The notes: a model not told the origin generated them from the sequence alone. 64,000 nucleotides of DNA from Candidatus Arsenophonus melophagi (GCA_032378655.1 JAVYJS010000006.1:13685-77684), one strand, 5' to 3'; positions 895 through 60,586 are shown, numbered from the stretch's first letter. Made by a program: numbers and translations.

Positions 895-947
895 AATATT
901 GAAGAATATAGTCTATTGAACTACTATAGACTATATTCTTCAATATT
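895..947. repeat. Perfect inverted repeat, 21-bp arms, 11-nt spacer
   Basis: Arms are aatattgaagaatatagtcta (895-915) and tagactatattcttcaatatt (927-947). It lies 264 bp downstream of guaA. Confidence 0.93.
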
Positions 948-1573
948 AGAAGTGATTTTAATTAAAAAAAATAAAACCAAAAAAAAGAATTGGTAATACC
1001 TATATATAATTGCACTTATTCGAATTTTTATCGAAATATTGAAAATTTGCACGCAGATTGCTTATTTGCAGCTATAGTCAGTCCATTATCATTAGCGATG
1101 CTACAATTATTAGCAATATAACTATACATTCTTTGTGCAACGTTGAAATGTATTCAATGCAGTAAGAGCAAATAATACGATAAAAGTCTGGTTTATAATC
1201 ACTATTCCTAATATTCTTATAATTAAGATATAAATGCTTATTTAGTTTTAATTCCTTTCAGATCTTCTTGTGCATACATCAAGAACACTAGCGCTACAAT
1301 TTTATACAATTTTGCTATTTCTGCACATGATACATGTGTGTGTGCTTATTAAACTACTAATAAATTTATGTCGTTTCCAACATAAACAAGATGACTCATT
1401 CAATTCAATATTTTTATGATAGAATAATTGTGTATACAATTACATACTTTAGTCTACATCATTTGTAGAAATGTATTCTAGGATGAAGGCAGATTTTAGC
1501 TAAAATGATTAGCTACTAGCTAAAATATAGTAAATAAGATTCTGAAAATAATCGACTTAAAAATCGATACAAG

Positions 1574-1595
1574 AGCTTAGTCCAAGGACTAAGCT
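1574..1595 (-). terminator. Possible intrinsic terminator hairpin downstream of aroH
   Basis: agcttagtcc-aa-ggactaagct forms a 10-bp stem about 100 bp past the aroH stop. The minus-strand sequence after it is moderately T-rich (cgatttttaag). Confidence 0.3.
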
Positions 1596-1691
1596 AGAGA
1601 TGATAATACTGTATGTAGCATTTTACAAAATATTCACTGCATTTTTTTTATAGTTTATTGAATTTTAGTTTTAAATTTTTATAAAAAATAT

Positions 1692-2738
1692 TTAAAATCG
1701 ATGTTTAACCGCTTCAGCTAAAATAGATAATAATTGTTCAGTATCCCGCCAACCTAAGCAAGGATCTGTAATAGATTGACCATAAGTGAGAGCTTTACCA
1801 GAAATAACTTTCTGAGAGCCCTCTACGAGAAAACTTTCCACCATAATACCTGCAATCGTTCTGGATCCTTTTTTTAATTGTTGGGCAATATTTTTAGCAA
1901 CATCTAATTGACGTTGATAAATTTTTTGACAATTGCCATGACTAAAGTCAATTACTAATTTTTCAGGTAATCCTAATTGGCGTAATTGACTACAAGCAAG
2001 CGCAATGTCTTCCGTGCTGTAATTAGGCCGTTTTCCTCCACGCATAATAATATGGCTATAAGGATTACCTTTAGTTTGATAAATAGTCACATGGCCATTT
2101 TTATCAGGTAATAAAAATACATGACCAGAACGTGCAGAACGAATTGCATCAAGCGCAATATTAATATTGCCATCAGTGCTATTTTTAAATCCAACTGGAC
2201 AAGAAAGAGCCGACGCCATTTGACGATGAATTTGGCTTTCTGTTGTTCTAGCACCTATGGTTCCAAAGCTAATAAGATCAGCAACATATTGCCCAATGAT
2301 TATATCTAAAAATTCAGTTGCTGTTGGCAACTTGAGCTGATTAATGTTAGTAAGTAGCTTACGAGCTACTCGTAAGCCTTTGTTAACTTTACAGGAATTA
2401 TTTAAATCAGGATCAGAAATTAAACCCTTCCATCCTATAACCGTACGTGGTTTTTCAAAATAAGTGCGCATCACGATTTCAAGATAGTCTTTATACTCAA
2501 TTCGCAACTTAACCAGCATTTTTGCGTATTCCAGTGCTGCTTGAGGATCATGTACTGAACACGGTCCAATGACCGCCATCAGTCGATGATCTTTGCCAGT
2601 TAAAATTAACTCAATATTTTTTCTTGATATTGCAATGTTTTCAATAATTTCTTCAGATATAGGAAACTCATCAGCCAAAGCTTGTGGGGTAATAAGGCTA
2701 TCAATAGGATCTGTTCTTAACCCATCTGTTTTATACAT
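1692..2738 (-). CDS. aroH: 3-deoxy-7-phosphoheptulonate (DAHP) synthase, AroH-like (Trp-sensitive type)
   Basis: The motifs IVMRTYFEKPRTVIGWKGLISDPDLN, GARTTESQIHRQMASALSCPVGFKN, PDKNGHVTIYQTKGNPYSHIIMRGGKRPNY and DFSHGNCQK follow E. coli AroH more closely than AroG or AroF. Met17 (MYKTDGLRTD) aligns with the AroH N-terminus, so I prefer the start at 2738. The ORF-track start is 2786. Confidence 0.93.
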   Translation of the reverse strand: MYKTDGLRTDPIDSLITPQALADEFPISEEIIENIAISRKNIELILTGKDHRLMAVIGPCSVHDPQAALEYAKMLVKLRIEYKDYLEIVMRTYFEKPRTVIGWKGLISDPDLNNSCKVNKGLRVARKLLTNINQLKLPTATEFLDIIIGQYVADLISFGTIGARTTESQIHRQMASALSCPVGFKNSTDGNINIALDAIRSARSGHVFLLPDKNGHVTIYQTKGNPYSHIIMRGGKRPNYSTEDIALACSQLRQLGLPEKLVIDFSHGNCQKIYQRQLDVAKNIAQQLKKGSRTIAGIMVESFLVEGSQKVISGKALTYGQSITDPCLGWRDTEQLLSILAEAVKHRF

Positions 2739-2850
2739 ATTTATCTCATATATACTGCAATGTAGTAGATCTTCTTGCCCAAGCAATTAGCATGGTTACA
2801 ACTAAAATAAACCTCTTCCAAGAGTTTATAACTGAGCATTAATATAATTA

Positions 2851-2904
2851 ATATTTAGCTTAGTACATCTGTTGTTGAAACAACAGATGTACTAAGCTAA
2901 ATAT
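2851..2904. repeat. Perfect inverted repeat, 26-bp arms, 2-nt centre
   Basis: Arms are atatttagcttagtacatctgttgtt (2851-2876) and aacaacagatgtactaagctaaatat (2879-2904). It lies 113 bp upstream of the aroH start. Confidence 0.95.
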
Positions 2905-5864
2905 ATCAATGACTTTAGTGAAAAGTATTTCATTAAAGTTATTACTGAGTTGTATATAAATAATAACTCTTATTGCTTTGCTACAGAAAGCCTATAACTC
3001 CTTAGTTAATTTTATCTAAAATTGACATTATGATAAATAAAGATTTTTACAACACTTTTAAAATAGCGGTGAGTTACTCAGAGACAATTACTGTCTCTGA
3101 CAGAGTATAATAATATACGGTTTAACATATAAGATAATGGCCTATTACCAGTATCATGAAAGCTGCAAAAGGATAATTAATAACCTACATCGTAAATCAT
3201 ATCACTCAATAAAGTCTATTTTAATCAAGTCTATTTTTTTGTTTTACTGCAGCGTGAAACATAAAGTAATATCACTTGAGTATCATCCAGATTACTTAAT
3301 GATATATCATCATTATTATGTGCTAATGTATATTTAATCAGTGAAATTCTAACATCATATGGATCCTAGATTAGAAAGTCTAGGAGGTGAGATTATAGTT
3401 TAGTTTATATTTTCAGACAACTGTTTTATGGATCAGATCAATAAAAGATTGCAGGATCTAATAAAAATCGCTGATATTATCAGTCATGATTTTATTGTTA
3501 ACAGAACAATAAAGGAAAAACTAAAAACCAAAATCTGAGTTTAATAATAGATTGTATCAATTTTTATTTCTCTTGCGCATTTGCTGATTTTAATGACGAT
3601 AACGATCGTATAACAAAAATGTTTCGTTATGTAACATGAAAGTCCATTCAGTTTCTTTAAATTTTCTTGTATCGCATCGTGCTGCAAATACTGCATTAGC
3701 TTTAAGGATTAATTAAAAGTAATGATACTAATCAACTTAGTATATCAATTATTGAATGCAATTAATATTAAGAATGCGAATCAATATTATAAAGGATTGT
3801 AACCATTGCATTGAACTGATACAGGCTTTATTGCCAATAGCATCAGCAGATGCGTCCAGATGCTTTATGGGGTCTCAAATGAAATTTTGCTAAATTTCAT
3901 CACTGAAAATTTAGAGATAATATTAAGTGATCAAGATTCTATTGGGTTTTAATTAATAGAAAAGAATTTACTCTATCAGCGATAATTTTAATATGACGAG
4001 TGATTTTGTATTATTTAATTTCTAGTTAGATAAAATCTGTTAACTGAATCGTCGCCGCTTGTGGTAATTGACTTCTAATGCGTTGTTTTCTAAATATTCA
4101 ATATGGCAAATTTGCTAAGAAACGTAAAAAATTGAAGACAATCAATTTTTTAGAAATTGTTTAGATCCAATAATAATTGGATTTTGTTTCACTAAAATTG
4201 AAATCATAAATTATCAATAATATTGATCTTAATGAGAGCAGAGAGTAAAGCTACTTTTACTTCAATAAAAGTTATGCAGAAACCAAATATTTTTTTTGTA
4301 ATGAACTTTATAGCTGTTTTAAAAACATGGAGAAAACAGGGGCACTATTATGATTAGTGCAAAATATCATTTGGCTACGATAAGAGAAGATTTACATCAA
4401 TAAATTTACTGATGTTAAGTAGTGCGATGTCAAAAATCATTACAATACACAACCAATGTTGACAGAAAAATAATTTTTATTTTACGTTTAAAACTAGTAA
4501 GACACTGTTCCAGTATTATCTATTATCCAATTTTATTAAAATAAGTTCTACTTTTTATATAACTTATAAGTATGGTGCGGTTAATAATGATAACGAGAAT
4601 GGTTTTTTAGAGCAGCTTTATTTTGAATGATGAAGTCAATAATCCTTTAACAATAACAATCCATAATGGAAGGGTAATAAAATTGTAATAATCAAGCACT
4701 GATCTGCTACTGATATCGAGAGTGTGCAGGACATTAAGAATTCTAAGTAATCTGTTTATCATAGTATTTGATATAGTAATATACAGTCACCTATCAATAC
4801 TAATAAAATACGAGATCAGCGACGATTTATTTTTAGATTGGTAAACTACACAGCAGTGGATTATAGAGCACAATGTAAGTAAAAGGATAAATAGCTAATA
4901 TAAGGATACAGATATCGCATGTGTACTATATCTAGAATCCAATAATGAAAGTCATAAAAAAATTTTACTTCTTGGTAAAATTGATATACATATATTATTT
5001 AGTATGTACTCAATGATCATTTAATTATGTTTTAATATAAAGAAATCAAAAATAATTAAATTAATTAATATGCATTAAATAATCCCTATTTATATAGTTT
5101 CGTTTTTATTAAACGGTTTAATAATTTTTATTGATTGCTTACACTTTCTCTCCAAGTATATATAGGAGAGACTCTATGTGAAAAACGGTAGCACTACCGA
5201 ACAAATAAAAAGTAATAATATCAATAATAAAATTCTAACATATACCAATAAAATAATAATCATTGATCAATGCACCTAGGTTTTCTGACCAAACAGCTAT
5301 ACTATGCATAGTATCATAATCAATAAATAATTAAGTTAGATAACATATCCATACCGTGTAGTACTAAGAATATTGCACAGCTAGTAATGTGCTACTAGCA
5401 TATATTAATGTAGCTACAATAACATCTGAAGCAATGAATGCTATTAAGCATTTAGTTAAAATCGATTTTTATAGTAGGTATCAATCAAGTTGTAGTATGG
5501 TGCTATCACAATGTAAATAGCTTCATTGGAACAAGCAACATGGAAAGGCTAAAGTGATATTGCTGAGATTATAGGTCATATTAGTTATATGAGAGCTCTA
5601 TAATCATATTAATACACACGTTAAATTAAAAGTTAACAACTAAAAAGGTATTTATGAGCACGATAGCATGAAATATCTATTACTTGTAATTAAGTAATAA
5701 TGTATGTGTAGTAAAGTGCTAATATATAAAAATAAAATAAAAACATTCATGTGAATATCTAAGATCATGCTCTAAGTTGAGGAGGCGCTTATGGCGTTAA
5801 AGAAATGAATAGTTTGCGTAATTAATAGTATATAAATCCATGTAAAAGTCATATGCTAAGTCAT

Positions 5865-5894
5865 CTGGATCATTGCATTGATGCAATGATCCAG
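5865..5894. repeat. Perfect hairpin, 13-bp stem, 4-nt loop
   Basis: ctggatcattgca-ttga-tgcaatgatccag. Confidence 0.9.
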
Positions 5895-6040
5895 GTTGAT
5901 CCGAGAACCTCATAAACTTTTAGTTATTACCATGGTGTTACTTTGATATCTTTGAAAAACTTTTCAGATAGTATTGACCAACTTTTTAAGTATGATATCT
6001 GAGATTATCTATAAAATAATAAGAACCAGAGCTATAAAGA

Positions 6041-6080
6041 CTGAATTAGTGCTAATCTGATATCACTAGCACTGATTCAG
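6041..6080. repeat. Inverted repeat, 14-bp arms with one G.T mismatch, 12-nt loop
   Basis: Arms are ctgaattagtgcta and tagcactgattcag. T6047 lies opposite G6074. Confidence 0.85.
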
Positions 6081-6346
6081 TAAAAGTTATAGTTCATGTG
6101 ATATATTCTATCTTTTCGGCGATACAGTCTGAACAATAAATATTTTATGAATATGAAGCACTAATTTTTATTTTTCAATAATTTTAATCTGCAAAATAAT
6201 TTTATTTTACTGATACAGTTTACTAAATTAAAGTTATTGATAAAGGGAGAATTGAATGATAATAGTAAATGAAATAAAATTTTTAATAAAAATATTTTTA
6301 TATTAAATATCTTCTTAAGATAAAGAGTTAAAATGGTATATGCTCT

Positions 6347-6373
6347 TAATTTAAGAGCATATAATTGTTTTAA
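6347..6373. repeat. Perfect palindrome, 13+1+13 nt
   Basis: tatatgctcttaa-t-ttaagagcatata, about 83 bp upstream of sufA. Confidence 0.9.
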
Positions 6374-6824: not shown

Positions 6825-6835
6825 GTGAATGAATT

Positions 6836-12658: not shown

Positions 12659-12682
12659 TGTGCATGTTAATTAACATGCACA
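12659..12682. repeat. Perfect 24-nt palindrome
   Basis: tgtgcatgttaattaacatgcaca is its own reverse complement. Confidence 0.93.
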
Positions 12683-12894: not shown

Positions 12895-12929
12895 ATTTAT
12901 TTACGCTAAATAAGTTAGCGTAAATAAAT
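12895..12929. repeat. Perfect hairpin, 15-bp stem, 5-nt loop
   Basis: atttatttacgctaa-ataag-ttagcgtaaataaat. Confidence 0.93.
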
Positions 12930-12953: not shown

Positions 12954-13009
12954 TGAATGCAATGCATTAGTCTTATTTCTAAATAAATAAGACTAATGCA
13001 TTGCATTCA
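12954..13009. repeat. Perfect hairpin, 25-bp stem, 6-nt loop
   Basis: Arms are tgaatgcaatgcattagtcttattt (12954-12978) and aaataagactaatgcattgcattca (12985-13009). Confidence 0.95.
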
Positions 13010-13025: not shown

Positions 13026-13053
13026 TATAGTGTTCTTGTGAAAGAACACTATA
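13026..13053 (-). terminator. Hairpin overlapping the pykF stop codon; candidate pykF terminator
   Basis: tatagtgttctt-gtga-aagaacactata forms a 12-bp perfect stem. The pykF stop (cta at 13049-13051) lies in the right arm. No strong U-tract follows. Confidence 0.4.
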
Positions 13054-14732: not shown

Positions 14733-14760
14733 TATATATTACTAATATTAGTAATATATA
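14733..14760. repeat. Perfect 28-nt palindrome
   Basis: tatatattactaat|attagtaatatata, 272 bp upstream of the pykF start. Confidence 0.92.
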
Positions 14761-14964: not shown

Positions 14965-15007
14965 ATACCATTATTTTTTTAAAATCATTAAAATAAAATA
15001 ATGGTAT
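14965..15007. repeat. Perfect inverted repeat, 13-bp arms, 17-nt loop
   Basis: Arms are ataccattatttt and aaaataatggtat. Confidence 0.85.
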
Positions 15008-17300: not shown

Positions 17301-17355
17301 ATTAAAACTAAAAACTCTTCTATCTCAAGAAGATAGAAGAGTTTTTAGTTTTAAT
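17301..17355. repeat. Perfect hairpin, 25-bp stem, 5-nt loop
   Basis: Arms are attaaaactaaaaactcttctatct (17301-17325) and agatagaagagtttttagttttaat (17331-17355). It lies 106 bp upstream of the rnt start. Confidence 0.95.
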
Positions 17356-17741: not shown

Positions 17742-17777
17742 ACAATTTATGGTTAATTAATATTAACCATAAATTGT
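17742..17777. repeat. Perfect hairpin, 16-bp stem, 4-nt loop
   Basis: acaatttatggttaat-taat-attaaccataaattgt. Confidence 0.93.
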
Positions 17778-17975: not shown

Positions 17976-18019
17976 GATTATTTTATATTTCATATTTATA
18001 TATGAAATATAAAATAATC
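17976..18019. repeat. Perfect hairpin, 20-bp stem, 4-nt loop
   Basis: gattattttatatttcatat-ttat-atatgaaatataaaataatc. Confidence 0.93.
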
Positions 18020-18997
18020 TATAAAATTTAACTTAATAAATACTTGTAATAAAATTTTATAAATAAGTGAATGTACTAACAATATAATATAAATTTATAT
18101 GTATCACTGCTTACTAAGCAAGTATATATTAGTACATGGAAATGGATTTATATTTATGGGTTATTACTTATAATATCATAAGTAACGTTCTGATCTTTCG
18201 TACCTCAATCATGTCTAATTGACATTACCTAAAACAAATTTAGTAACATAAAATAGTATACTTATTATATAGGTTAATGATTTTAGTTAAAAAAACAAAA
18301 TAGGCTTCATTATGCATGACACCTAATGAGTTAGGTGAACTGAATATTATGAATAAAAGGATTACTATAATCCTAATAAATAGTATTTGTAAATACTTTA
18401 ATACCGTAGCTGCTAATGATTTAAATTTATCTGATATTGACTATTGGAGTTATATTAACGAGGAGAAGTCGTAACATTATGTCTGTTGCTCCTAATAGAT
18501 GCATATACTTAACTATGACAGTTACATGTTTTTCAATATGAAAAAATTATTTATATCCAACCTAATTTCCAACTAAAACATTTTGATTTGTTGAGTAGTA
18601 CTAAACATGGTATCAGTAATGTACGCTTAAATTGTAGCTATAATTTTAAGAAAATTTTCTTCTTACTCATAAAATATATCATCCAATAATTAACTAAGAA
18701 TTGTGTTGATCTAATGCGCTAATTAACTGTAATATACGATTGTACTTTGTATGTATTTATCTTGTTTAGTAGTATAAACTTGCTCAAAATAGACTGCCTG
18801 TATTTATACAGGCAGTTAAATCTACCATGGTAACAATACCACCAAAATCTACTTTAAATGAAGATTGCTTTTCAAAGCTCATACACAATATAAAAAAATA
18901 ATTCTGAATATACATGAAATCGTCATTGATTTTTATCATGATCACTGAATATTTGAAGTAATAGCAACATTCATTTAATTTTTAAAAATCTAATATA

Positions 18998-19051
18998 GAG
19001 TACAATCATACTAATATGAGCTTTTAAGCTCATATTAGTATGATTGTACTC
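18998..19051. repeat. Perfect inverted repeat, 26-bp arms, 2-nt centre
   Basis: Arms are gagtacaatcatactaatatgagctt and aagctcatattagtatgattgtactc. Confidence 0.95.
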
Positions 19052-19755: not shown

Positions 19756-19802
19756 AATCATTGATCCACCTCTACTCTACGAGTAGAGGTGGATCAATGA
19801 TT
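19756..19802. repeat. Perfect hairpin, 22-bp stem, 3-nt loop, relatively GC-rich
   Basis: aatcattgatccacctctactc-tac-gagtagaggtggatcaatgatt. Confidence 0.95.
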
Positions 19803-22094: not shown

Positions 22095-22165
22095 TAAATC
22101 TATCTAGTATAATTACTATAATGTAATAGTATTATCCCTTTAAAGGGAGTTATTTCAAGTTTTTC

Positions 22166-22199
22166 TAAAACACTATCTATGATCATAGATAGTGTTTTA
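22166..22199 (+). terminator. Intrinsic terminator of tyrS (34-nt perfect palindrome followed by a T-run)
   Basis: taaaacactatctatga|tcatagatagtgtttta is followed by tttttc, 72 bp after the tyrS stop. The A-run/T-run symmetry would also allow bidirectional termination. Confidence 0.6.
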
Positions 22200-22522
22200 T
22201 TTTTCTAGAATCCGAAATTTCAAAAATTTTGTTGCAAGGACGTCAGATTATATTTCTTCTTTGTAAAGAAGCAATATAATCTTGGATATTATGAGGTAAT
22301 AACCTTAATATATCCTTAATATATTCTAGGAATAATAGTAACCATCGATTACTAATATTGAGTAAGTATGAATAGAAAAAGAGATCGATTCTAAAATCAG
22401 CATAATAGCAAGCGATGAATTAAACGTCATGTTTTACTAAAAAGTAAATATTACACATCAATGTAAAGTGCTGTCATTTTAATTCATTTTATTATCAAAA
22501 AATTCCAATTCAAATTAATAGG

Positions 22523-22574
22523 ATCCTTCCTCTACACATAAACCTAAGATTAGGTTTATGTGTAGAGGAAGGAT
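22523..22574. repeat. Perfect inverted repeat, 25-bp arms, 2-nt centre
   Basis: Arms are atccttcctctacacataaacctaa and ttaggtttatgtgtagaggaaggat. There is no flanking T-run. Confidence 0.95.
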
Positions 22575-22812
22575 GATGGTAAAATGATAGATTGTCCAAG
22601 ATTAAGTATCAACCTATAGTGATAGCAATAGCACAGTATTCACTGTAGATAAATATATGCTTAAAAAATTTTCTATAAACTAGATATAGTGATAATGAAT
22701 TTTATCACTATTGTTCAGTAATTGTCTTTGTATTACTGAATATTTTGTTATGGTTAATAACCTAATCTCCAGAACATATTTATTAAGATTTTATTATAAA
22801 TGGTAGTAGTAG

Positions 22813-22868
22813 AACCATTAATTACCCTATCACTTACTTTACAGTAAGTGATAGGGTAATTAATGGTT
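22813..22868. repeat. Perfect hairpin, 26-bp stem, 4-nt loop
   Basis: aaccattaattaccctatcacttact-ttac-agtaagtgatagggtaattaatggtt. Confidence 0.95.
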
Positions 22869-23202
22869 ATTTCAATAACAAATAACATTTTTGTACTTTT
22901 AAAGTATAAATAATATATACTTCATTACTGAATGACTGAGGTAATAGAAAGAAAATTCTTTTTGATTTCTTTGATCTATACAAAGATGTGATAAATTATA
23001 ACACCTCTGTACATAGAGGTCGAAATGATATGCAAGATCGCATTGTTTCATGCGCAATGATATCATTGAAGTGATATAATTTCTTTCTTTATTGAAAGAA
23101 GCGAAAAGTTAATCTATACAAGTAAAAAAATAAGTAATTTTTATAAAAACAATTTTGTAATTTATCCTTTTTTTGCAAAAAATCTTACACTTAGTTATTT
23201 AA

Positions 23203-23243
23203 AACTCCATAAGACTTATATAAAATATAAGTCTTATGGAGTT
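23203..23243. repeat. Perfect hairpin, 19-bp stem, 3-nt loop
   Basis: aactccataagacttatat-aaa-atataagtcttatggagtt. Confidence 0.93.
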
Positions 23244-23483
23244 AATGTCTTATATGATATAAGATATATAATATATGGTTTTTAATAAAACGTCGTTTTA
23301 AGAAGTTTTATTTCTATGATGCCTCTGAATCTATGCAGAGATAATCTGATTATTGTATACTGAGTGCGATAACAAATAAAAGACTTATTCTGAGCTTATT
23401 GTAGAATAAGAATTTTCTTGTTGATGTATAAAAGTAATCACCTCCTCTTGATAAGAGGAATTTTTCAGGGTTCTGCATTTCAA

Positions 23484-23515
23484 TAAAATAGCTTGATCAT
23501 GATCAAGCTATTTTA
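23484..23515. repeat. Perfect 32-nt palindrome
   Basis: taaaatagcttgatca|tgatcaagctatttta. Confidence 0.93.
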
Positions 23516-23753
23516 ATAATTAACTTGCGCTTTTTTTAAAGTATAATAACTTATTTTCCAGTAGCTAACATATGCTAATAACTTTCTGCAGGTAGCGTCA
23601 ATAAGACTAAAATGGCAGTCGGGTTATCATGCCATTCTTAATATATGGATGTTTATCTGTAATTTACTCAACAAGTAAATAAATTTACTTTATCATTATT
23701 TTGTTTAAAATTAGTGTTAATAAAACTAATGTTAAACAAAATAGAAAAAGAAA

Positions 23754-25204: not shown

Positions 25205-25234
25205 ATAAAACTATTCATTAATGAATAGTTTTAT
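25205..25234. repeat. Perfect 30-nt palindrome immediately upstream of dnaB
   Basis: ataaaactattcatt|aatgaatagttttat ends 6 nt before the ATG at 25241. Confidence 0.93.
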
Positions 25235-28077: not shown

Positions 28078-28135
28078 CAGTTAAATTAAAATCAATTCCT
28101 GATTGCACAATCAGGAATTGATTTTAATTTAACTG
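28078..28135. repeat. Perfect hairpin, 27-bp stem, 4-nt loop, between convergent alr and uvrA
   Basis: Arms are cagttaaattaaaatcaattcctgatt (28078-28104) and aatcaggaattgattttaatttaactg (28109-28135), with a gcac loop. Confidence 0.95.
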
Positions 28136-32624: not shown

Positions 32625-33730
32625 CTGATATGAACTGCTTCAGGTTTTAATTTTGCTTTGTCATTTTAATGTTACAGATAACCAAATTGTCTAGATAAAA
32701 TTCTAGGAATTATTCTGATTTCTGTAGACTGTTGTCCTTAATTAAGGGTGTACTTGGCATTATTCGTAAATCAATTTTTTAGTTTTTTCTAGTATCGTTT
32801 AAGAACGATTTTGGTTCTAGATATACGGGATTAACTATGAATAAACGTTACTTCAGTGCAAGTGATATAGGTTTTTAATTACAATGTTTTGATTTTTGTA
32901 CGTTTAAAAAGAAAAAATTGATGCACGTTAACATTAGTAATCCAAAGATCATAACTGGATCTTTGGTTTATATTATCATTTTACGCAATCTCACCGTATG
33001 GTAGATTGCGATAGGCCTTGGTGCGCTCGTTTCTAGCGATCAGTGAAGAGTTAGGTGAATGCTCAATAAATAGATTCTTTGGCTATTTGCATAGCCAATA
33101 CGGATAAAAGTAAATGGTAAGATTTATTTTTTATCCGTAACCTAAACAAGACAGATAAAATATCAAAGCCATTTGATATAGCATAATGCGTTGATATGCA
33201 AAACTGAATAAGAGAAAAATATAAGTTTTGCTCGAGCTAACTAAAATACAACTGATATTATACTATACTTTAATCATTTTTAAAATGATGTGTTTCATAA
33301 GGTATGATATACTTATAGTGATCTTTAAAATTTAGTCCTTAAGATCTCAAATAGTCTTGTAAGCTTTATAAGGTCAAGCTGTTTAATATGCCAGATTGCT
33401 TTTTAGATTATATGTTAGTCTTGCTTATGCTGCAAAAAATCAGATAACACAAAGTGTGCTACGTTATTTCACTTTTTTTGTAAAGAAAGTTATATCCTAT
33501 GCATGAGTAAGTTAAAAAAATAAAGATTAAATACCAAGAAAAGGAGCATAAAGGTTTATATCTATAAAATTAGAGCATACATATTCAGTATTTAATATGT
33601 AATTTAAAACTGCATATTAATAATAAAGCCAATCAAAAACATAATGCGGTTTTGAATAAACCTAACGTGAAGGTATTTAACTTAATGAAGTTAGATTACT
33701 CTTAACTCAAAAATCTAAAATAATAGTTTG

Positions 33731-33765
33731 GATCTATTTCTCTCTTGACATGAGAGAAATAGATC
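33731..33765. repeat. Perfect hairpin, 14-bp stem, 7-nt loop
   Basis: gatctatttctctc-ttgacat-gagagaaatagatc. Confidence 0.9.
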
Positions 33766-34305
33766 TTAAAATGCAGATCAATTGAGAATAACCAATAAAT
33801 CACTATAAGCACCAAAGAGCGCAATGTAAAATTACAGTTTTTACTTAATTTTGATATACTAATCACAATTAAGTATTTACTAGAGTCTGATTAAAGGCTT
33901 TCTTTGGAGTTTTGAACTAAGTACGCTTAGGATAATTAAGATCTTTTAGAAGTTTTCACTTCATACAAGAAGTACAAGTAAAAATGTATTTTATAGTCAT
34001 AAATCCCATACCTAAAACAGGTCATAAATTATAAAGAAGTGTTTAAGTTTCGATTGTAAAAATCATTTTATGTTTAAAAACATAAGTTTAGAGTTCTTTT
34101 TTAACCTACTAATATAGTATATAGGGTATATTATTTTTTAAAAAGTATTCTTCATGAATACAGGTAACTTATGACTTATTAATGTTTAATTTTATGACTT
34201 TTTATGTTAGTTTAACTAGATTCCATATGTATACATAAAGCCAATATGTTCAGTTAATATTTTCTATATTGTTTTATGTACTCAAAAGCTAGAAGGTTTT
34301 TAACC

Positions 34306-34340
34306 ATGCTCTAATTCTTCATTATGCTCTAATTCTTCAT
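34306..34340. repeat. Perfect tandem duplication, 17-nt copies, 18-nt period
   Basis: atgctctaattcttcat-t-atgctctaattcttcat. Confidence 0.92.
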
Positions 34341-34585
34341 GTTATAGGATATTGAAAATATATTTAAAACATTTATATCAATTTCTGATATTTCAGAACT
34401 GTATCATTGATTTTATTTTTTTATTTTTATAATTGGAATGGCGAATGATTTTTATTTGCCTTGCATATTATTTTGCTTTTATTTTATATAAAATAAATTA
34501 AAAGCATTTGATTTTTTATTAAATAATAAAAGAGTTTCATATTGTTATGATAATACATATATCATTATGTACATTTGATCATCTT

Positions 34586-34626
34586 TAATCAAATAATAAA
34601 TTGATATTGAATTTATTATTTGATTA
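34586..34626. repeat. Perfect hairpin, 17-bp stem, 7-nt loop
   Basis: taatcaaataataaatt-gatattg-aatttattatttgatta. Confidence 0.92.
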
Positions 34627-34754
34627 GCGTTATGGTATTGTTCATACTATTATTGATAGTTGAGGCAATGCATGCATACTCAAATGAACTAGACGTTACT
34701 TGAATTACTTGTGATGTTACTACTCCCTAAATAACACTTAATCTTTTATATAAG

Positions 34755-34792
34755 ATCACATGCTCTTCTATTTTATCAGAAGAACATGTGAT
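34755..34792. repeat. Inverted repeat, 15-bp arms with a single C/A mismatch, 8-nt loop
   Basis: Arms are atcacatgCtcttct and agaagaAcatgtgat. Confidence 0.85.
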
Positions 34793-34858
34793 TAAACCAT
34801 CTCTATCTTTGGCTACAGGTTTTTTAACCTGTATAGGAAAATCTCGTAAATAACGACC

Positions 34859-34883
34859 ATCCTCTCTCTTAAAGAGAGAGGAT
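34859..34883. repeat. Perfect palindrome, 12+1+12 nt
   Basis: atcctctctctt-a-aagagagaggat. Confidence 0.9.
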
Positions 34884-35475
34884 TAAAGTAAAACCTGATA
34901 TAGCACTAATTCTCTTGAAACCGTATTGTTGATAACAAAAAATTGCTGATTACATTGGTCAATACATTTCAATACACTTTCGGATAAACAATCCGTTCAA
35001 TAAAAAGTCTTTTAAAGAACAATTAATACCTATAGGTACTTAACAACAATTAATGAAAGATTGCTAGTCATTTATAATACTCACTGATCCATGATAAGCA
35101 AATAGTCAATAATATCTATGAAGTCTATGAGGATAATAAAATGAAATTAAAGTAATAACTCATTTTATATATTAGTAATAGCAATAGACAATCAATGGAT
35201 TTCTAATAATCCCATCTTTGATGATAAAGTGTAGTACAGAATAAGCATTATAGAAAAACTGATTATCTTTATAGACTGTTTTCGCTGAAAATACTATTCA
35301 ATTTCAATTTTAAAAAAGTATAAATATGATATACTTTACAATAAAACATTGTATAACATAAAGTAAAATAGTGCAGAAATCATAAACATCATCAGGCTTT
35401 CAATTATCAAGATTGACTGTAATTATTGTTTCGTGTATTATTAGAATAATGAATTGCAGCAACCAATTGACCAAC

Positions 35476-35495
35476 ATTAGTTGATATCAACTAAT
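35476..35495. repeat. Perfect 20-nt palindrome
   Basis: attagttgat|atcaactaat. Confidence 0.9.
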
Positions 35496-36344
35496 ACCTA
35501 CCTTTTTATTATTGTTTAGTTATAAAACAAAAATATTAAACAATAATTGTTATCTTTGCTTAAAAAGCAGCACATAAGAGCTAATGGTAAATAATGTAAC
35601 GGAACAATAAAATTGTAAAATGTTCTTATATATTGCAAGATATATGGTTTACAATCATAATGATTATGGAACGAGATTAGTTCGCTCAGATAATTTTACC
35701 GTTATCAAAAGCGTGAGAACTGATTGTTAATACCAGAATAGTTTTACATACAATAACAATTGTGTTCATTAATAATGTTAATGTTTACAACATTGCTTGA
35801 AACACTTAAATATTTAATGACATGATGAAGACGTTATGAGATAAAATAGTTACTTTATGATCACTATATCTACAAACAATATATCATTTTAATTCATATA
35901 TTTGATGCGCTATATTTCTCGCTTCTATCTAGGATAGATATCAATAAATAATGATATATCTTGAAATATTTGAGATCTCCTAATATTCGCGATCATCCGA
36001 GATAAAATTTTAAAAAATTTTCGGATCACTACCAATAGATTATTACTAATGATTAATAGGTTAGATTTCCTATTTACACTATATCACAAGATGAGATATT
36101 GTAAATCTGAGTTGAACAATATTGTTAACTCATTTAAGACTTTTTAGTGTTAAAAACATTTATGGAAAATCAATCCACTATTACTATGCAATGATAGTAT
36201 TTATAATATTTTAGCACCTCATTACTGCTAGCGATATTCTTTTATCTTTCTTACTAAAACATAATGTTATCATGAATAATGTAATTTGGATTTACTGACC
36301 AATAACTATTAGTGTTGGTATTTCACAAACTACATGAACAATCT

Positions 36345-36420
36345 GTATCCTTGTATTTTAAAGGTAGGCAAAGAGCCTACCGCTTGATTGCAAGCGCCTT
36401 TTACCTTTGGAAAAGGATAC
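36345..36420. other. Locally GC-enriched 76-nt segment with three consecutive short hairpins and complementary ends; function unknown
   Basis: The hairpins are ggtaggc-aaaga-gcctacc (36363-36381), gcttg-attg-caagc (36382-36395) and cctttt-acctttgg-aaaagg (36397-36416). The ends gtatcctt and aaggatac are complementary. The surrounding desert is much more AT-rich. Confidence 0.3.
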
Positions 36421-37081
36421 ATATTTATATTGATTGCTATGAGAATATACTTCGTTGCATTAATGCTCAGTATGATGAATTAATTTGATCATGTAATAGA
36501 AAATGCTAACTGCTCTTTAGGCTGATTGTACAGTTGATCAACTGTATTCTCTAATTGGTCGAATCTGAATTCGACTTAAAAAATAAAACTACCTCCTAAT
36601 ATTTATAAGGATCATAGCTAATACTATTATTGTTTAGTTTCGATACTCAACTAAACTGCTTTTAATTTTCTGCCATTAAAGCTCTGCGTGAAGATATCCT
36701 ATTATTAATTGTTTAATGTAGATATGATAGTTGTGTTATAATCAATTACTTTTATCAAGTTTATTTTTCTTTAGTGTATGATAACTTTAATGATTGAGCC
36801 TGTAAATACTGATGTTTTATTAGAAGCAGTAATACCTTAACTGATATAAGTTCTGCTTGCTTTTCAAGATTTATTATCTTACTCCGTAAGATTATTACTA
36901 ATATTATTAGTAGTCACTTATGTGATTACAAACTTTATCAATTAAGTATTGTTGTTATTCGGATCGCAACCATGTGAATTATCTTGATAATTATAAGTAC
37001 TTCACTGAATAAATGCATATATGTTCATATTATATGACTCATTAAAATAAAAACATTAAAATTCATTTAATTAAGGATAAA

Positions 37082-38731: not shown

Positions 38732-39198
38732 TGCATGCCATAAAATAAACGGAATTACTAATTATTATAACGCTACTATGTCAAGCGTCTTTTGTTTACT
38801 CTCTAAGTAAACTGTTTTATCTCTTGGATTAAGCTATTTATATTCAAGTTAGTGTACTATTTTAAGTCATATGGTGATTATATCTCTTTCTTTTTAACAA
38901 AGAATCACGATCTTAGTGTAGTCTTTATTTTTGTTGCCTGTAGTCGTTATTTGTAACTATTAAAGATCAATAGATAAAGCAGTATGTAGGATGCGATATT
39001 TATATAGTGTAATGTTAGGTTGCTACTTGTTAGCTACTAACATTAGCTGTATATAGTTACAGTAATCCTTAAAAGGATTAGTTTATGTGTAGTTTGCAAA
39101 AATTTTCTTCGCAATTGCATCAATTGGCTATACAAGAATGATAAGATTTATCTATTACTACAATAGTAATCTCTGCATTGTTTTATATCGATCCCTTT

Positions 39199-39234
39199 AT
39201 AGGATATTATTCGATTGCATGAATAATATCCTAT
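39199..39234. repeat. Perfect hairpin, 14-bp stem, 8-nt loop
   Basis: ataggatattattc-gattgcat-gaataatatcctat. The right arm overlaps the following tandem duplication. Confidence 0.9.
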
Positions 39235-39276
39235 ATAAATAAATTACCGGATAATATCCTATATAAATAAATTACC
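39223..39276. repeat. Perfect tandem duplication, 26-nt copies, 28-nt period
   Basis: ataatatcctatataaataaattacc-gg-ataatatcctatataaataaattacc. Confidence 0.93.
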
Positions 39277-40851: not shown

Positions 40852-42180
40852 GTGGATATTCAATTATTATGTGCAATTATTGGATTTCTTACTGGCATAC
40901 TTTTTGGTGGTGTTTTAATCTGGATCGTAGTTGCACAAAAAGTGAATAAAAAAGAATCTGAATTACGAAGCCTATATACTATACAGGCTAGCTATGAGGA
41001 AAAAATTACTCATCTTGAATATTGGAAAGGTGAGTGCGAGCGTCGCGATCAAGAATTAAAGTTACAAATGGAAGTTAATCGTAATCAAGAAGTCGAATTA
41101 TGTGAAGTTATGACACGACTTGAAGAGACACGACTTGTTTTTGAAGAGAAACAGCGGCTATTACTTAATAGTGAACAACGATTAAATGTTCAATTTGAAA
41201 ATTTAGCCAACCGTATTTTTGAACAAAATGAACGACGTGCTTCTGAGCAGCAGCGTCAGAGTTTAATTGCATTATTAATGCCTTTTCGTGAACAGTTAGA
41301 TGGCTTTCGGCGGCAAGTGCATGACAGTTTTAGTCAGGAAGCACTTGAGCGTCATACTCTAGCACATGAAATTCGTCAGCTTCAGCAGTTAAATGCAGAG
41401 ATGGCAAAAGAAACTATTAAGCTGACTAAAGCGTTAAAAGGAGATAATAAAATTCAGGGTAATTGGGGTGAGGCAATTCTTTCACGCATCTTAGAGGCCT
41501 CGGGTCTGAGAGAAGGGCATGAATTTGAGAGTCAAGTCAGTATCAACACCTCCGATAGTCGTTATCAACCGGATGTCATTATCCGGTTACCACAAGGTAA
41601 AGATGTTGTAATCGATGCTAAAATGTCACTAACAGCTTATGAGAATTATTTCAATAGCGAAGATGAAGAACACAAAGTTACGGCATTGCGGGGACATATT
41701 AATTCTGTTCGGAATCATATAAAAGAACTTGGGCGCAAAGATTATCAGCAATTAAATGGATTAAGATCATTAGATTATGTATTAATGTTTATTCCACTTG
41801 AGCCGGCTTATTTAATTGCTTTACGTGAAGCTCCTGAGCTTATTGATGAGGGATTAAAAAATAACATTTTACTCGTCTGCCCTTCAACCTTGTTGGTAGC
41901 AGTGCGTACTATTAATAATTTATGGCGTTATGAACACCAAAGTCAAAATGCGCAAGTCATTGCTGAGTGTGCTTCTAAAATGTATGATAAAATGCGATTA
42001 TTTGTCGATGACATACAAATTTTAGGTCAGAGTTTAAACAAAGCGCAGCTTAATTATCAATCAGCAGTAAAAAAATTAACCGAAGGAAAAGGTAATTTAA
42101 TAAGTCAAGCAGAAAATTTAAAAGAATTAGGGATAGAAGTAAAACGTCCAATTAATACTGAATTTAATAAACATAAATAA
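40852..42180 (+). CDS. rmuC: DNA recombination protein RmuC
   Basis: SEQRLNVQFENLANRIFEQ, REQLDGFRRQV, ALKGDNKIQGNWGE, QPDVIIRLPQGKDVVIDAKMSL and NLWRYEHQSQNAQ match E. coli RmuC. It has a GTG start and lies upstream of ubiE, as in E. coli. Confidence 0.94.
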   Translation: MDIQLLCAIIGFLTGILFGGVLIWIVVAQKVNKKESELRSLYTIQASYEEKITHLEYWKGECERRDQELKLQMEVNRNQEVELCEVMTRLEETRLVFEEKQRLLLNSEQRLNVQFENLANRIFEQNERRASEQQRQSLIALLMPFREQLDGFRRQVHDSFSQEALERHTLAHEIRQLQQLNAEMAKETIKLTKALKGDNKIQGNWGEAILSRILEASGLREGHEFESQVSINTSDSRYQPDVIIRLPQGKDVVIDAKMSLTAYENYFNSEDEEHKVTALRGHINSVRNHIKELGRKDYQQLNGLRSLDYVLMFIPLEPAYLIALREAPELIDEGLKNNILLVCPSTLLVAVRTINNLWRYEHQSQNAQVIAECASKMYDKMRLFVDDIQILGQSLNKAQLNYQSAVKKLTEGKGNLISQAENLKELGIEVKRPINTEFNKHK

Positions 42181-45910: not shown

Positions 45911-45941
45911 CATATATTCTTTACAAAGTAAAGAATATATG
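45911..45941. repeat. Perfect hairpin, 14-bp stem, 3-nt loop
   Basis: catatattctttac-aaa-gtaaagaatatatg. Confidence 0.9.
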
Positions 45942-47065: not shown

Positions 47066-47120
47066 GCTCGATAATTTATCGAGCATCCTTACCTTATAAT
47101 GGACAATATAAGGTAAGGAT
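47066..47120. repeat. Two abutting perfect hairpins (9-bp stem, then 14-bp stem)
   Basis: gctcgataa-t-ttatcgagc (47066-47084) is directly followed by atccttaccttata-atggacaa-tataaggtaaggat (47085-47120). Confidence 0.9.
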
Positions 47121-47228: not shown

Positions 47229-47270
47229 ATTTATTATTATAACTGCTTTTCAGCAGTTATAATAATAAAT
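47229..47270. repeat. Perfect hairpin, 19-bp stem, 4-nt loop
   Basis: atttattattataactgct-tttc-agcagttataataataaat. Confidence 0.93.
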
Positions 47271-50932: not shown

Positions 50933-51270
50933 TGAACGCATCAGCATTAGGTCGTACTGGTATTCAAGATTGGCTATTACTTCGTGCGTCTGCCATTATT
51001 ATTCTCCTCTATACATTTTATATCATAAGTTTTGTTTTAATGACCGAAATCAATTATAATATTTGGCGGACATTTTTTCATTTTTCAATAACTAAAATTT
51101 TTACACTTTTAACCCTTATTTCCGTATTGATACATGCCTGGGTAGGGTTATGGCAGATATCAACTGATTATATTAAGTCAATTACATTGCGATTAGTATT
51201 ACAATTTTTTTTTATTGTAATACTAATGATTTATTTAATTTATGGAACAATAGTGGTGTTGGGAGTGTAA
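50926..51270 (+). CDS. sdhD: Succinate dehydrogenase hydrophobic membrane anchor subunit
   Basis: MVVNASALGRTGIQDW aligns with E. coli MVSNASALGRNGVHDF. 114 aa. It overlaps sdhC by 7 nt. Confidence 0.93.
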   Translation: MVVNASALGRTGIQDWLLLRASAIIILLYTFYIISFVLMTEINYNIWRTFFHFSITKIFTLLTLISVLIHAWVGLWQISTDYIKSITLRLVLQFFFIVILMIYLIYGTIVVLGV

Positions 51271-56768: not shown

Positions 56769-56780
56769 TAAGGATAGAAA

Positions 56781-58162: not shown

Positions 58163-59335
58163 ATGAACTTACACGAATATCAAGCAAAGCAGCTGCTTGC
58201 ACAGTATGGTTTATCAGTGCCTATAGCTTATGTTTGTAAAACAGTAGAAGAGGCTGAACATGCTACAGAAAAATTAGGTCATGGTCCTTGGATAGTAAAA
58301 TGTCAGATACATGCTGGCGGTCGAGGCAAAGCAGGTGGAGTAAAAGTTGTTAATAATCGGAAGGAAATCCAGCTATTTGCTGAAAAATGGCTAGGAAAAC
58401 GCTTAATAACTTATCAAACTAATACAAAAGGACAGCTTGTTAATCACATTTTAGTAGAAGCAGCAACTGATATTGATAAAGAACTTTATTTGGGGGCGGT
58501 AGTAGATCGTACCGTTCATCGCATTATTTTTATAGCATCTACTAATGGTGGTATTGAAATTGAAAAAGTAGCAGAAAAAAATCCAGAATTAATTCATAAA
58601 GTTACTATTGATCCATTAACTGGCCCTATGCCTTATCAAGGTCGTGAACTTGCTTTTAAGTGCGGCTTGAATGAAACTCAAGTTGAGCAGTTTAGCAAAA
58701 TGTTTATTGGATTAGCTAAAATTTTTATTGAGCGTGATATGGCGTTAATTGAAATTAATCCTCTAGCCATAACTAAGCAAGGTAACTTAATTTGTTTAGA
58801 CAGCAAACTTAGCGTTGATAGTAATGCACTATATCGCCAAATAGAATTACAGAAGTTACATGATCCTTCTCAGGAAGATCAACGTGAAGCACACGCAGCA
58901 GAATGGAAATTAAACTATGTTGCATTAGATGGTAACATAGGCTGTATGGTTAATGGTGCTGGGTTAGCCATGGCAACTATGGACATTATTAAGTTACATG
59001 GTGGTGCTCCAGCTAATTTTCTTGATGTTGGTGGTGGAGCTACACGAGAACAAGTAACAGAGGCTTTTAAAATTATTTTATCTGATAAAAATGTTAGGGC
59101 TATTTTAGTTAATATTTTTGGTGGCATTGTTCGCTGTGATTTAATTGCTGATGGTATCATTAGCGCAGTTAAAAAAAGTGGAGTAAAAGTACCAGTGATT
59201 GTGCGTCTTGAAGGTAATAATGCGACGTTAGGAACAAAAAAGTTAGCGAATAGTGGTCTAAATATCATAACGGCAACATACTTGCCAGATGCGGTAGAAA
59301 AAGTAGTAGCAGTAGCAAAGGCAGAGGCAAAATAA
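58163..59335 (+). CDS. sucC: Succinate--CoA ligase [ADP-forming] beta subunit
   Basis: The motifs are [57 protein letters not shown] and [10 protein letters not shown]. Confidence 0.97.
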
Positions 59336-59338
59336 GCA

Positions 59339-60223
59339 ATGTCAATTTTAATTGATAAAAATACTAAAGTTATTTGTCAAGGTTTTACAGGTAGTCAAGG
59401 CACTTTTCACTCAGAACAAGCAATTGCTTATGGAACAAAAATGGTAGGCGGTGTAACGCCAGGTAAGGGCGGCACACAACACTTAGGATTACCAGTTTTT
59501 AATACGGTACGAGAAGCAGTATTAAAAACTGGCGCTACTGTATCGGTAATCTATGTGCCTGCGAGATTCTGTAAAGATTCTATCATTGAAGCAATAAATG
59601 GTGGCATCAAACTAATTATTACAATCACAGAAGGAATTCCTACATTAGATATGATAACAGTAAAAGCAAAGCTAGATGAAACTAATGTAAGAATGATAGG
59701 GCCAAACTGTCCAGGTATTATTACTCCAAGTGAATGTAAAATTGGTATTCAACCAGGTCATATCCACAAACCGGGGAAAATCGGTGTTGTATCGCGCTCT
59801 GGAACATTAACTTATGAAGCAGTTAAGCAGATCACAGATGTAGGTTTAGGGCAATCGACTTGTGTTGGTATTGGTGGCGATTCTATTCCTGGATCAAATT
59901 TTGTTGATATCTTGAAATTGTTTCAAGAAGATCAACAAACTGAAGCTATCGTTATGATAGGTGAAATTGGTGGAGCAGCGGAAGAAGAAGCAGCAATTTA
60001 TATTAAAAAACATATCACAAAACCAATTATTGCTTATATTGCTGGTGTGACAGCACCAAAAGGTAAGCGTATGGGACATGCTGGAGCCCTCATTGCAGGA
60101 GGGCAAGGTGCAGTAGATAAAAAATTGATTGCTTTGGAAGAGGCAGGAGTAAAAACCGTTCATAGCTTATCTTTGATTGGAGAAGCAGTACAAGTAATAC
60201 AGAAATTAGTAATTCGTAATTAG
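59339..60223 (+). CDS. sucD: Succinate--CoA ligase [ADP-forming] alpha subunit
   Basis: The motifs are [38 protein letters not shown] and the active-site His in MGHAGA. Confidence 0.97.
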
Positions 60224-60357
60224 TAATTACGTGATTCAGGTAATAATTACAAGCTGCTATCTATAGTTATTGTAACTTATCTAATTTATTATTTAACTTC
60301 AATAATATCTTGTATTCACGTTATGTTGTAATCCTTGATATTACTTATCTTCTCAGA

Positions 60358-60400
60358 AAAGCTCTCTCAAAGAGCAGAAACAGCTCTTTGAGAGAGCTTT
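60358..60400 (+). terminator. Candidate terminator of the sdh-suc operon (18-bp perfect stem, 7-nt loop)
   Basis: aaagctctctcaaagagc-agaaaca-gctctttgagagagcttt lies 135 nt after the sucD stop. The A-run/T-run is built into the stem base, and gactttt follows. Confidence 0.45.
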
Positions 60401-60547
60401 GACTTTTAAAACCATTACCTTGAGTTTCATCTGTGCTGACTGTTTAAGCACTGTACTGACTATGTATTTCGTTCAATAATAGAGGATTTCTTCTATACTT
60501 ATTATGTACGGTAAATTTTTATCGTTCTTTTAAGAAAGAACAGTATT

Positions 60548-60586
60548 GAATCTCTAGTATTCAAGTACCTTGAATACTAGAGATTC
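60548..60586. repeat. Perfect hairpin, 18-bp stem, 3-nt loop
   Basis: gaatctctagtattcaag-tac-cttgaatactagagattc, 139 bp upstream of the asd start. Confidence 0.93.

Follow-up and report, generated by a model that had tools for sequence, protein, structure and literature searches.

Long, perfect hairpin palindromes of unique sequence in the spacers of an Arsenophonus symbiont, and their probable origin in a DNA-level mutational process

A stretch of 64,000 nucleotides from Candidatus Arsenophonus melophagi (GCA_032378655.1, JAVYJS010000006.1:13685-77684), referred to here as the window, carries between positions 895 and 60586 a population of long, perfect hairpins, each with its own sequence and nearly all of them in non-coding DNA. 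The 64-kb window has a G+C content of 32.4% and is 63.5% coding, and the gene-free remainder is spacer at 26% G+C. Its genes are ordinary enterobacterial housekeeping genes, namely guaA, aroH, sufABCDSE, pykF, sodB, grxD, rnt, pdxH, tyrS, dusA, dnaB, alr, uvrA, ssb, a Na+/H+ antiporter gene, rmuC, ubiEJB, ubiD, fre, sdhCDAB, sucABCD, asd and gyrB. Among the genes connected with DNA metabolism, uvrA, ssb, rnt, rmuC and dnaB are intact; rmuC (40852-42180) is an intact open reading frame (ORF) of 442 aa against a profile of 475 positions, and its NCBIfam score of 626 bits lies under the cut-off of 810. A role in restraining inversion at short inverted repeats has been attributed to RmuC. The G+C content and coding share agree with published values for Ca. 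Arsenophonus melophagi (32.2% G+C; 725 genes in 1.155 Mb). An exact copy of the PykF sequence was not on record; its nearest match is in the Arsenophonus endosymbiont of Aleurodicus floccissimus (ARAF), at 87% identity, with further Arsenophonus symbionts at 77-83%, and Alr gives the same relationships; these matches place the window in an obligate insect symbiont of the Arsenophonus clade. Relatives are denoted by locus labels where needed: L001 is ARAF; L010 and L085 are Ornithomya symbionts; L082 is A. lipoptenae; L081 is the Ceratovacuna japonica symbiont (AP026064, a closed genome); L083 is a metagenome-assembled genome (GCA_046530765.1) and L084 a contig from a separate assembly of the same organism (Logan SRR30220720); L086, L087 and L088/L089 are three desert-rich Arsenophonus lineages of about 31-34% G+C.

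An exhaustive scan of 895-60586 for perfect hairpins with a stem of at least 12 bp and a loop of at most 12 nt returned 32, whose stems range from 12 to 28 bp and loops from 0 to 9 nt; a repeat finder independently returned the same long members. An earlier note, made from the sequence alone, had counted more than 35; that figure does not hold at this threshold, and is reached (36) only when stems of at least 11 bp or loops of up to 60 nt are admitted. With stems of at least 14 bp the count is 27, and with stems of at least 10 bp it is 48. All eight long members named in that note lie where it placed them, save that the stem at 28078 is 28 bp and so falls outside the 25-27 bp given for the class. 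Thirty hairpins are wholly non-coding and one overlaps the pykF stop codon, as had been noted; the remaining one lies inside an intact sdhD, so the population is not entirely intergenic. The perfect hairpins, the members found with mismatches and one shorter hairpin are listed below; strand is assigned only at 18793-18816.

895-947: perfect, stem 22, loop 9; scan and repeat finder; non-coding, 264 nt past guaA
2851-2904: perfect, stem 26, loop 2; scan and repeat finder; DNA folding free energy (dG) -24.5, z -13.6
5865-5894: perfect, stem 14, loop 2; scan; G+C over 40%
6040-6081: one mismatch, arm 15, loop 12; mismatch scan
6337-6363: perfect, stem 13, loop 1; orthologous ARAF site without a hairpin, outgroup having 5 of 13 pairs
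12659-12682: perfect 24-nt palindrome, stem 12; scan
12895-12929: perfect, stem 15, loop 5; scan
12954-13009: perfect, stem 25, loop 6; scan, repeat finder and folding; pykF end
13026-13053: perfect, stem 12, loop 4; scan; overlaps pykF stop codon
14656-14682: perfect, stem 12, loop 3; scan; absent from ARAF
14733-14760: perfect 28-nt palindrome, stem 14; scan; absent from ARAF
14965-15007: one mismatch, arm 16; mismatch scan
17301-17355: perfect, stem 25, loop 5; scan and folding; ARAF DNA homology ends just ahead of it
17742-17777: perfect, stem 16, loop 4; weak quasi-palindrome sharing the outer pairs in ARAF; DNA dG -15.5 in the window vs -3.5 kcal/mol in ARAF
17976-18019: perfect, stem 20, loop 4; scan
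18793-18816, minus strand: 10-bp, GC-richer, terminator-like hairpin with T-rich tail; shared in position with ARAF (6 of 10 pairs there), perfect only in the window
18998-19051: perfect, stem 26, loop 2; scan and folding; absent from ARAF, left arm better conserved
19756-19802: perfect, stem 22, loop 3; scan and folding; G+C over 40%
22166-22199: perfect 34-nt palindrome, stem 17; 72 nt past tyrS, followed by TTTTT
22245-22282: one mismatch, arm 18, loop 2; repeat finder and mismatch scan
22523-22574: perfect, stem 25, loop 2; scan, repeat finder and folding
22813-22868: perfect, stem 26, loop 4; scan, repeat finder and folding
23203-23243: perfect, stem 19, loop 3; scan
23484-23515: perfect 32-nt palindrome, stem 16; scan; no hairpin in L086
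23697-23743: two mismatches, arm 23, loop 1; repeat finder and mismatch scan; absent from L086
25205-25234: perfect 30-nt palindrome, stem 15; 7 nt ahead of the dnaB start; absent from L086 and L088
28078-28135: perfect, stem 28, loop 2, the longest; scan, repeat finder and folding
33731-33765: perfect, stem 14, loop 7; scan
33842-33875: one mismatch, arm 14; mismatch scan
34474-34506: one mismatch, arm 14; mismatch scan
34586-34626: perfect, stem 17, loop 7; scan and repeat finder
34755-34792: one mismatch, arm 15; mismatch scan
34859-34883: perfect, stem 12, loop 1; scan; G+C over 40%
39198-39235: perfect, stem 15, loop 8; scan; right arm inside a perfect 28-nt tandem duplication (39223-39276)
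45911-45941: perfect, stem 14, loop 3; scan
47085-47120: perfect, stem 14, loop 8; scan
47229-47270: perfect, stem 19, loop 4; scan and repeat finder
51192-51227: perfect, stem 14, T8 loop; the sole coding member, in the 3' part of intact sdhD; translated region ...LRLVLQFFFIVILMIY...
60358-60400: perfect, stem 18, loop 7, 44% G+C; scan and repeat finder; 135 nt past sucD
60548-60586: perfect, stem 18, loop 3; scan and repeat finder

These numbers were compared with 40 dinucleotide-preserving shuffles made in 500-nt blocks. Over the whole window, 32 hairpins with stems of at least 12 bp stand against a mean of 0.225 in the shuffles (maximum 2), and 20 with stems of at least 16 bp against none. 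The claim that the population lies far beyond chance was thus upheld: the 27 stems of at least 14 bp compare with an expectation of about 0.05 and, when the two compartments were shuffled separately as a control, non-coding DNA held 31 (assigned by midpoint) against 0.17 expected, a 177-fold excess, while coding DNA held 1 against 0.07. This amounts to approximately 1.3 hairpins per kb of spacer, with perfect palindrome making up about 5% of spacer DNA. Furthermore, the distribution of stem length in non-coding DNA is bimodal, with counts falling through 38, 19, 8 and 3 at 8-11 bp and then a flat class of 31 at 12-28 bp, which indicates a distinct generator acting in one step. As single strands of DNA, the eight longest hairpins have folding energies between -22.8 and -26.2 kcal/mol (z-scores from -11 to -14). 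Their energies (2851-28135) cluster regardless of stem length (22-28 bp) or G+C content (20-41%) and no arm exceeds 28 nt, and there may be a ceiling of stability beyond which palindromes are lost. At the short end, perfect stems of 8-11 bp in coding regions are 2.5-6.7 fold more frequent than in dinucleotide shuffles, similar to non-coding DNA, which may reflect either usual codon-structure bias or short-tract template switching within genes.

Mismatches in the stems are also few. Against the 32 perfect members there are about seven non-coding hairpins with one or two mismatches, rather than the two single-mismatch cases counted earlier, and only some 8 of 690 pairs are mismatched (1.2%), without bias toward changes compatible with G-U pairing. 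None of the seven stems of 25-28 bp contains a mismatch. Meanwhile, the alignable spacer DNA is just 67-72% identical to that of ARAF. The surroundings had been described as decaying pseudogene sequence, but recognisable remnants are almost nil: tblastn of the masked spacers with ORFs of at least 70 aa from 85 related loci gave only two weak matches at E < 1e-4. Complementarity is 100% within the stems and falls to 27.8% in the 10 nt outside them, against a background of 30.2%, and the hairpins are therefore not the cores of larger palindromes in decay. Loops are of 0-4 nt in 22 of the 32, and twelve of these have loops of 0-2 nt. Close direct repeats of at least 12 nt number five, against 32 inverted ones, so the process is specific to fold-back or inverted repeats; general slippage was rejected as a cause, close direct repeats being rare.

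Comparison with relatives was centred on 21 kb around pykF, where each of 80 relatives has at most a few perfect hairpins (0-4), their longest stems being 12-19 bp, and the window has 18, eleven of them at least 16 bp and seven at 20-26 bp. ARAF shows no excess, nor do the Ornithomya symbionts L010 and L085 at 23-24% G+C, and the desert-rich lineages L086, L087 and L088/L089 (31-34% G+C) have 0-1 hairpins each. A. lipoptenae has a weak excess, 5 against 0.6 expected. In L083, by contrast with these, 13 hairpins were found against 0.55 expected, seven with stems of at least 16 bp; together with two one-mismatch members, 14 of the 15 are non-coding and one runs across a gene end, and L084 has the same palindromes. 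The C. japonica symbiont has six stems of at least 16 bp against 0.1 expected, albeit among pure A/T spacers that blur the picture. The excess is thus lineage-specific: one more reduced Arsenophonus lineage shares it, a third probably does, and six others do not. Neither AT-richness by itself nor the presence of gene deserts was accepted as the cause, since L010, L085 and L086-L089 have one or both and show no excess. The PykF tree is star-like with the hairpin-rich lineages on separate long branches, and DNA alignment of the window spacers to L081-L085 and L010 gave nothing usable, which together indicate that the hairpins arose separately in the window and in the other hairpin-rich lineages. 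Exact hairpin sequences gave zero matches in two metagenome scans. The L084 contig (1-26) starts exactly at the centre of a 34-nt palindrome that corresponds to L083:6669-6702; palindromes of this kind apparently interrupt de Bruijn-graph assembly, which may be why these symbiont genomes remain fragmented.

Few orthologous spacers could be aligned, and those only to ARAF or L086. At none of the eight alignable sites does the relative have a perfect hairpin; 35-60% of the pairs are kept while the flanks are 60-76% identical, and the hairpins are thus not conserved at orthologous positions. The outgroup version at 17742 and at 18793 is a weaker quasi-palindrome, the perfect version being found only in the window. 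Conservation of the two arms is usually asymmetric, as judged against distant outgroups and in noisy AT-rich alignments: left 9/10 and right 7/10 at 18793, left 9/16 and right 12/16 at 23484 (against L086), left 12/15 and right 10/15 at 25205, and left 20/26 and right 15/26 at 18998. Such asymmetry is suggestive, being what copying from arm to arm would predict.

The sequences show the population signature and its lineage specificity; the polymerase-level event, the balance between recent creation with rapid turnover and continuing correction, and the cause of the raised rate are inferred. Taken together, the data suggest that the hairpins are probably products of a mutational process at the DNA level, namely fold-back template switching that both generates palindromes in neutral DNA and homogenises them, rather than designed signals. 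An active template-switch process was one of the two explanations put forward in the earlier note, and it fits every test run here. Experiments in phage T4, E. coli and yeast have established template switching of this kind. While replication or gap filling is under way, the nascent 3' end would leave its template and, using a few bases of inverted microhomology, fold back or cross to the other strand; such microhomology is abundant in the 74% AT spacers. The 3' end would then copy 12-28 nt as reverse complement and return to the template, so that a single event could write an inverted repeat free of mismatches, with a minimal loop and abrupt ends (the Ripley/Lovett model, or the four-point model of Loytynoja). 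Later rounds would re-copy one arm from the other, and in this form of concerted evolution palindromes would stay perfect until deleted. As each event rewrites 12-28 nt, those in coding DNA would be purged by selection, leaving genes nearly hairpin-free, and events would accumulate in the large neutral spacers of an eroding genome. The window lineage would have a raised rate, and so would at least one further obligate Arsenophonus.

Presumably, functions that abort or penalise fold-back synthesis, for example ExoI, ExoVII, RecJ or SbcCD, have been lost; the earlier note's suggestion of a loss of SbcCD-, ExoI- or ExoVII-type functions is a reasonable one. DNA-repair systems are reported to be ablated in obligate Arsenophonus, and ExoI is reported to abort template switching. 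Several points weigh against this picture. The window has intact copies of uvrA, rnt, rmuC and dnaB, and of ssb with its DDDIPF tail. General loss of repair is not sufficient, since L010, L085 and largely L082 are AT-rich and repair-poor and lack the excess. Stems of 8-11 bp are enriched just 3-8 fold and to a like degree in coding DNA, and may be ordinary. The nearest relative is only 87% identical in PykF, the case for one copied arm draws on noisy AT-rich alignments, and the alignment at 18998 changed between two runs. Finally, a few members (22166, 60358 and 12954/13026 at the pykF end) could be functional. Loss of the SSB tail, as a route to failed ExoI recruitment, was considered and rejected, the DDDIPF tail being intact.

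A broader proposal can be put forward only tentatively, and the balance of the evidence does not yet favour it: that some obligate Arsenophonus, namely the window lineage, that of GCA_046530765.1 and probably the C. japonica symbiont, may independently have entered a 'palindrome-writing' regime. Loss of one safeguard (ExoI, ExoVII, RecJ or SbcCD) would have raised fold-back template switching strongly and heritably, and neutral DNA would be overwritten with hairpins up to about -26 kcal/mol (28 bp) that arm-to-arm conversion keeps perfect. Were this so, the regime would be a mutational signature of genome decay not recognised before, and a natural hypermutator in which template switching and the de novo birth of hairpins (small RNAs or terminators) could be studied.

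A rival to template switching at the replication fork is snap-back templated synthesis during repair of double-strand breaks or gaps. Here Pol I would extend a resected 3' end that has folded back on itself, and rejoining would leave an inverted duplication at the junction, comparable to the templated insertions of eukaryotic Pol-theta. It is unlikely to account for the population, although it predicts the same sharp, perfect palindromes with short loops, the hairpin at 25205 coincides with approximately 290 nt that are present in L086 and missing from the window, and perfect short tandem duplications occur at 34306 and 39223. At most alignable sites (6337, 17742, 18793, 18998 and 23484) a similar length has been replaced between collinear flanks with no large deletion, and repair of this type does not by itself explain the continued perfection of the stems.

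The second explanation offered earlier was selection as strong terminators or insulators. In a wider form of it, the hairpins would be long AT-rich bidirectional terminators, insulators or RNA-stability structures that offset weak termination in an AT-rich, regulator-poor genome. Intrinsic (Rho-independent) terminators have GC-rich stems of 5-12 bp, loops of 3-8 nt and a U-tract, and lie at the 3' ends of genes. The window hairpins resemble them in being intergenic stem-loops, a few of which are followed by T-runs, but as a population they differ in GC content and placement, and many of their loops are shorter. The arms have a GC content of 25.4% and the spacers one of 26.5%; only 60358, 5865, 19756 and 34859 exceed 40%; with arm GC at spacer level there is no enrichment and no sign of selection for stability. 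Tabulated against gene ends, 4 of 32 hairpins (12.5%) fall in the 150 nt that follow a gene 3' end, a zone that makes up 12.6% of non-coding DNA, and the preference for gene ends that selection would imply did not materialise. Density is 1.8 per kb in convergent, 1.2 in divergent and 1.3 in tandem spacers, which is no convergent-spacer preference above background; hairpin number follows spacer length (rho 0.83), with Poisson-like dispersion. Many hairpins sit deep in gene-free DNA or just 5' of starts (65 nt ahead of aroH, 7 nt ahead of dnaB), loops of 0-2 nt make poor RNA loops, edges are sharp, and there is no wobble-type variation. A lenient scan for T-tails and the terminator consensus over 12-32 kb did label about 7 of 17 hairpins terminator-like, T-rich tails being common in 74% AT DNA; all stems are very stable; and 22166 (72 nt past tyrS), 60358 (135 nt past sucD) and 12954/13026 (pykF end) are plausibly placed. 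When the entire window was scanned with Rfam and for tRNAs, none of the hairpins coincided with a known RNA. Relatives with similar deserts have no such hairpins, and orthologous sites lack them, whereas ARAF shares the genuine-looking 10-bp hairpin at 18793-18816 but not the 26-bp one (18998-19051) that lies 180 nt from it. Arm GC, random placement, loops of 0-4 nt and lack of conservation thus speak against selection as terminators or insulators for the population, which as a class does not consist of terminators or other selected RNA structures; that such selection produced it nevertheless is quite unlikely. Individual members may differ: 22166, with its T-run after tyrS, and 60358, with 44% G+C after sucD, are possibly genuine terminators, and 18793-18816 is likely a genuine old terminator that was 'perfected' in the window lineage.

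Whole-genome amplification, a frequent step in the sequencing of symbiont genomes, generates inverted chimeras, and the window comes from a draft 87-kb contig of a genome for which an independent assembly was not found. An artefact of assembly, amplification or polishing, for example fold-back chimeras of phi29 (multiple displacement amplification) in a low-coverage consensus, is nevertheless very improbable. Such an artefact would not avoid coding DNA, where only 1 of the 32 hairpins lies although 63.5% of the window is coding; both flanks continue collinearly; and the same signature occurs in genomes from other projects, in L083, whose palindromes are also in L084, and in the closed genome AP026064 (L081).

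That the hairpins are copies or footprints of a cryptic mobile element of the REP, MITE or Rickettsia palindromic element type is barely credible. They are palindromic, intergenic and numerous like REP/BIME, MITE, Rickettsia palindromic and Correia elements, but those are multi-copy families spread by transposases and each window hairpin has its own sequence, when perfect and hence young copies of a family ought still to resemble one another. Each arm is unique in the window, with a longest match elsewhere in it of 9-14 nt, and the repeat search shows no common family. No flank motif was found, and anchored direct repeats on the flanks are of 0-2 nt in 31 of the 32 hairpins; the exception, 22166, has a 6-nt direct repeat TTTTTC (22154-22211), which resembles a target-site duplication and may be chance in T-rich DNA. 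No transposase or RAYT was found among the ORFs of the 64-kb window. The earlier note had likewise excluded a REP/BIME/MITE family for want of shared sequence, transposase or RAYT-like gene and flanking direct repeats, and its argument stands apart from the repeat at 22166.

If the hairpins are products of fold-back template switching, the mechanism itself is familiar. Quasipalindrome template-switch mutagenesis was reportedly described by Ripley in 1982 and in E. coli by the Lovett laboratory, with hotspots at single reporter sites and stems of roughly 10-20 bp; ExoI and ExoVII restrain it. It turns imperfect inverted repeats into perfect ones by arm copying, at the DNA level and without regard to strand, as proposed here, but the window would represent a genome-wide standing crop of approximately 1.3 per kb of spacer with stems of up to 28 bp, many apparently arising de novo. 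Short template-switch mutations creating hairpins have been described (Loytynoja & Goldman 2017, PMC5453318), and template switching can write a whole hairpin stem in a single event (Monttinen & Loytynoja 2022, PMC8794818). Those events likewise give a perfect stem at once and explain clustered, compensatory-looking changes, but they were described as rare, from ancestral reconstructions in rRNA and primate genomes (PMC5453318, PMC8794818).

A genome-wide consequence is also known in milder form. The non-coding DNA of proteobacteria contains more perfect inverted repeats than expected, and for their excess and conservation template-switch correction has been proposed as the explanation; in E. 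coli the over-representation rises with arm length to an observed/expected ratio of about 150 for arms of at least 13 (Lavi et al. 2018, PMC5941160); perfect short inverted repeats had been treated earlier (Ladoukakis & Eyre-Walker 2008, as cited in PMC5941160). The growth of enrichment with arm length and the attribution to template-switch correction are shared with the window. In absolute terms the two differ, as E. coli and the 80 relatives have 0-4 hairpins per 21 kb with maximum stems of 12-19 bp, REPs and terminators included, and the window has 18 in the same span, all unique, AT-rich and none conserved in relatives.

Among organelles, hairpins occur in chloroplast spacers. In Nematomorpha, mitochondrial genes contain perfect inverted repeats of up to 284 bp within coding sequences (PMC6649704), which resemble the window hairpins in being many, perfect and sequence-unique in a small, AT-rich, repair-poor genome; the window hairpins differ in that they avoid coding DNA and end at 28 bp. 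Literature searches recovered no bacterial lineage with a hugely raised standing load of template-switch hairpins and, for Arsenophonus and other endosymbionts, no description of about 5% of spacer DNA as unique perfect palindromes with stems of up to 28 bp, nor of their absence from the closest relatives together with recurrence in another symbiont lineage. The earlier suggestion that this had not been described as a genome feature is therefore only partly right: an excess of perfect inverted repeats and their creation by template switching are published (PMC5941160, PMC8794818, PMC5453318), and it is the density and stem length in an endosymbiont for which no precedent was found. The mechanism and a milder genome-wide consequence are known; the scale is new.

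If this interpretation is correct, the window offers a population-scale view of unrestrained and unselected template-switch mutagenesis, in effect a natural hypermutator. Loss of a specific DNA-repair function could then be tied to a visible genomic signature, and the model would be testable with hundreds of events per genome. The hairpins would also be a ready source of de novo stem-loops for co-option as terminators, small RNAs or RNase III sites. For annotation of symbiont genomes, such palindromes raise the number of predicted terminators and can pass for regulatory elements or mobile repeats.

Several further observations concern individual regions. Two perfect two-copy tandem duplications with 100% identical units lie in spacers, at 39223-39276 (28-nt unit) and 34306-34340 (18-nt unit). 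Counting the first of these, the right arm of the hairpin at 39198-39235 is present three times; young direct duplications are much rarer than inverted ones. The 4.4 kb at 32625-37081 contain no ORF of at least 60 aa and no detectable pseudogene remnant, and hold three perfect and three one-mismatch hairpins. In the window, dusA and tyrS are separated by 1.66 kb of spacer that holds seven hairpins, five of them perfect and two imperfect; in an Ornithomya symbiont hemB sits between these genes, and a hemB remnant was not detected in the window interval. Gene order is unlike that of E. coli in that tyrS adjoins dusA-dnaB-alr-uvrA-ssb (22095-23753) and asd is convergent with gyrB (61841-61857). 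In ARAF (L001, reverse complement of 2740-4220 and 4214-5011), sufB, sufC and sufD match the window proteins only as consecutive ORF fragments, which suggests that its suf operon is frameshifted or pseudogenised, the window copy being intact.

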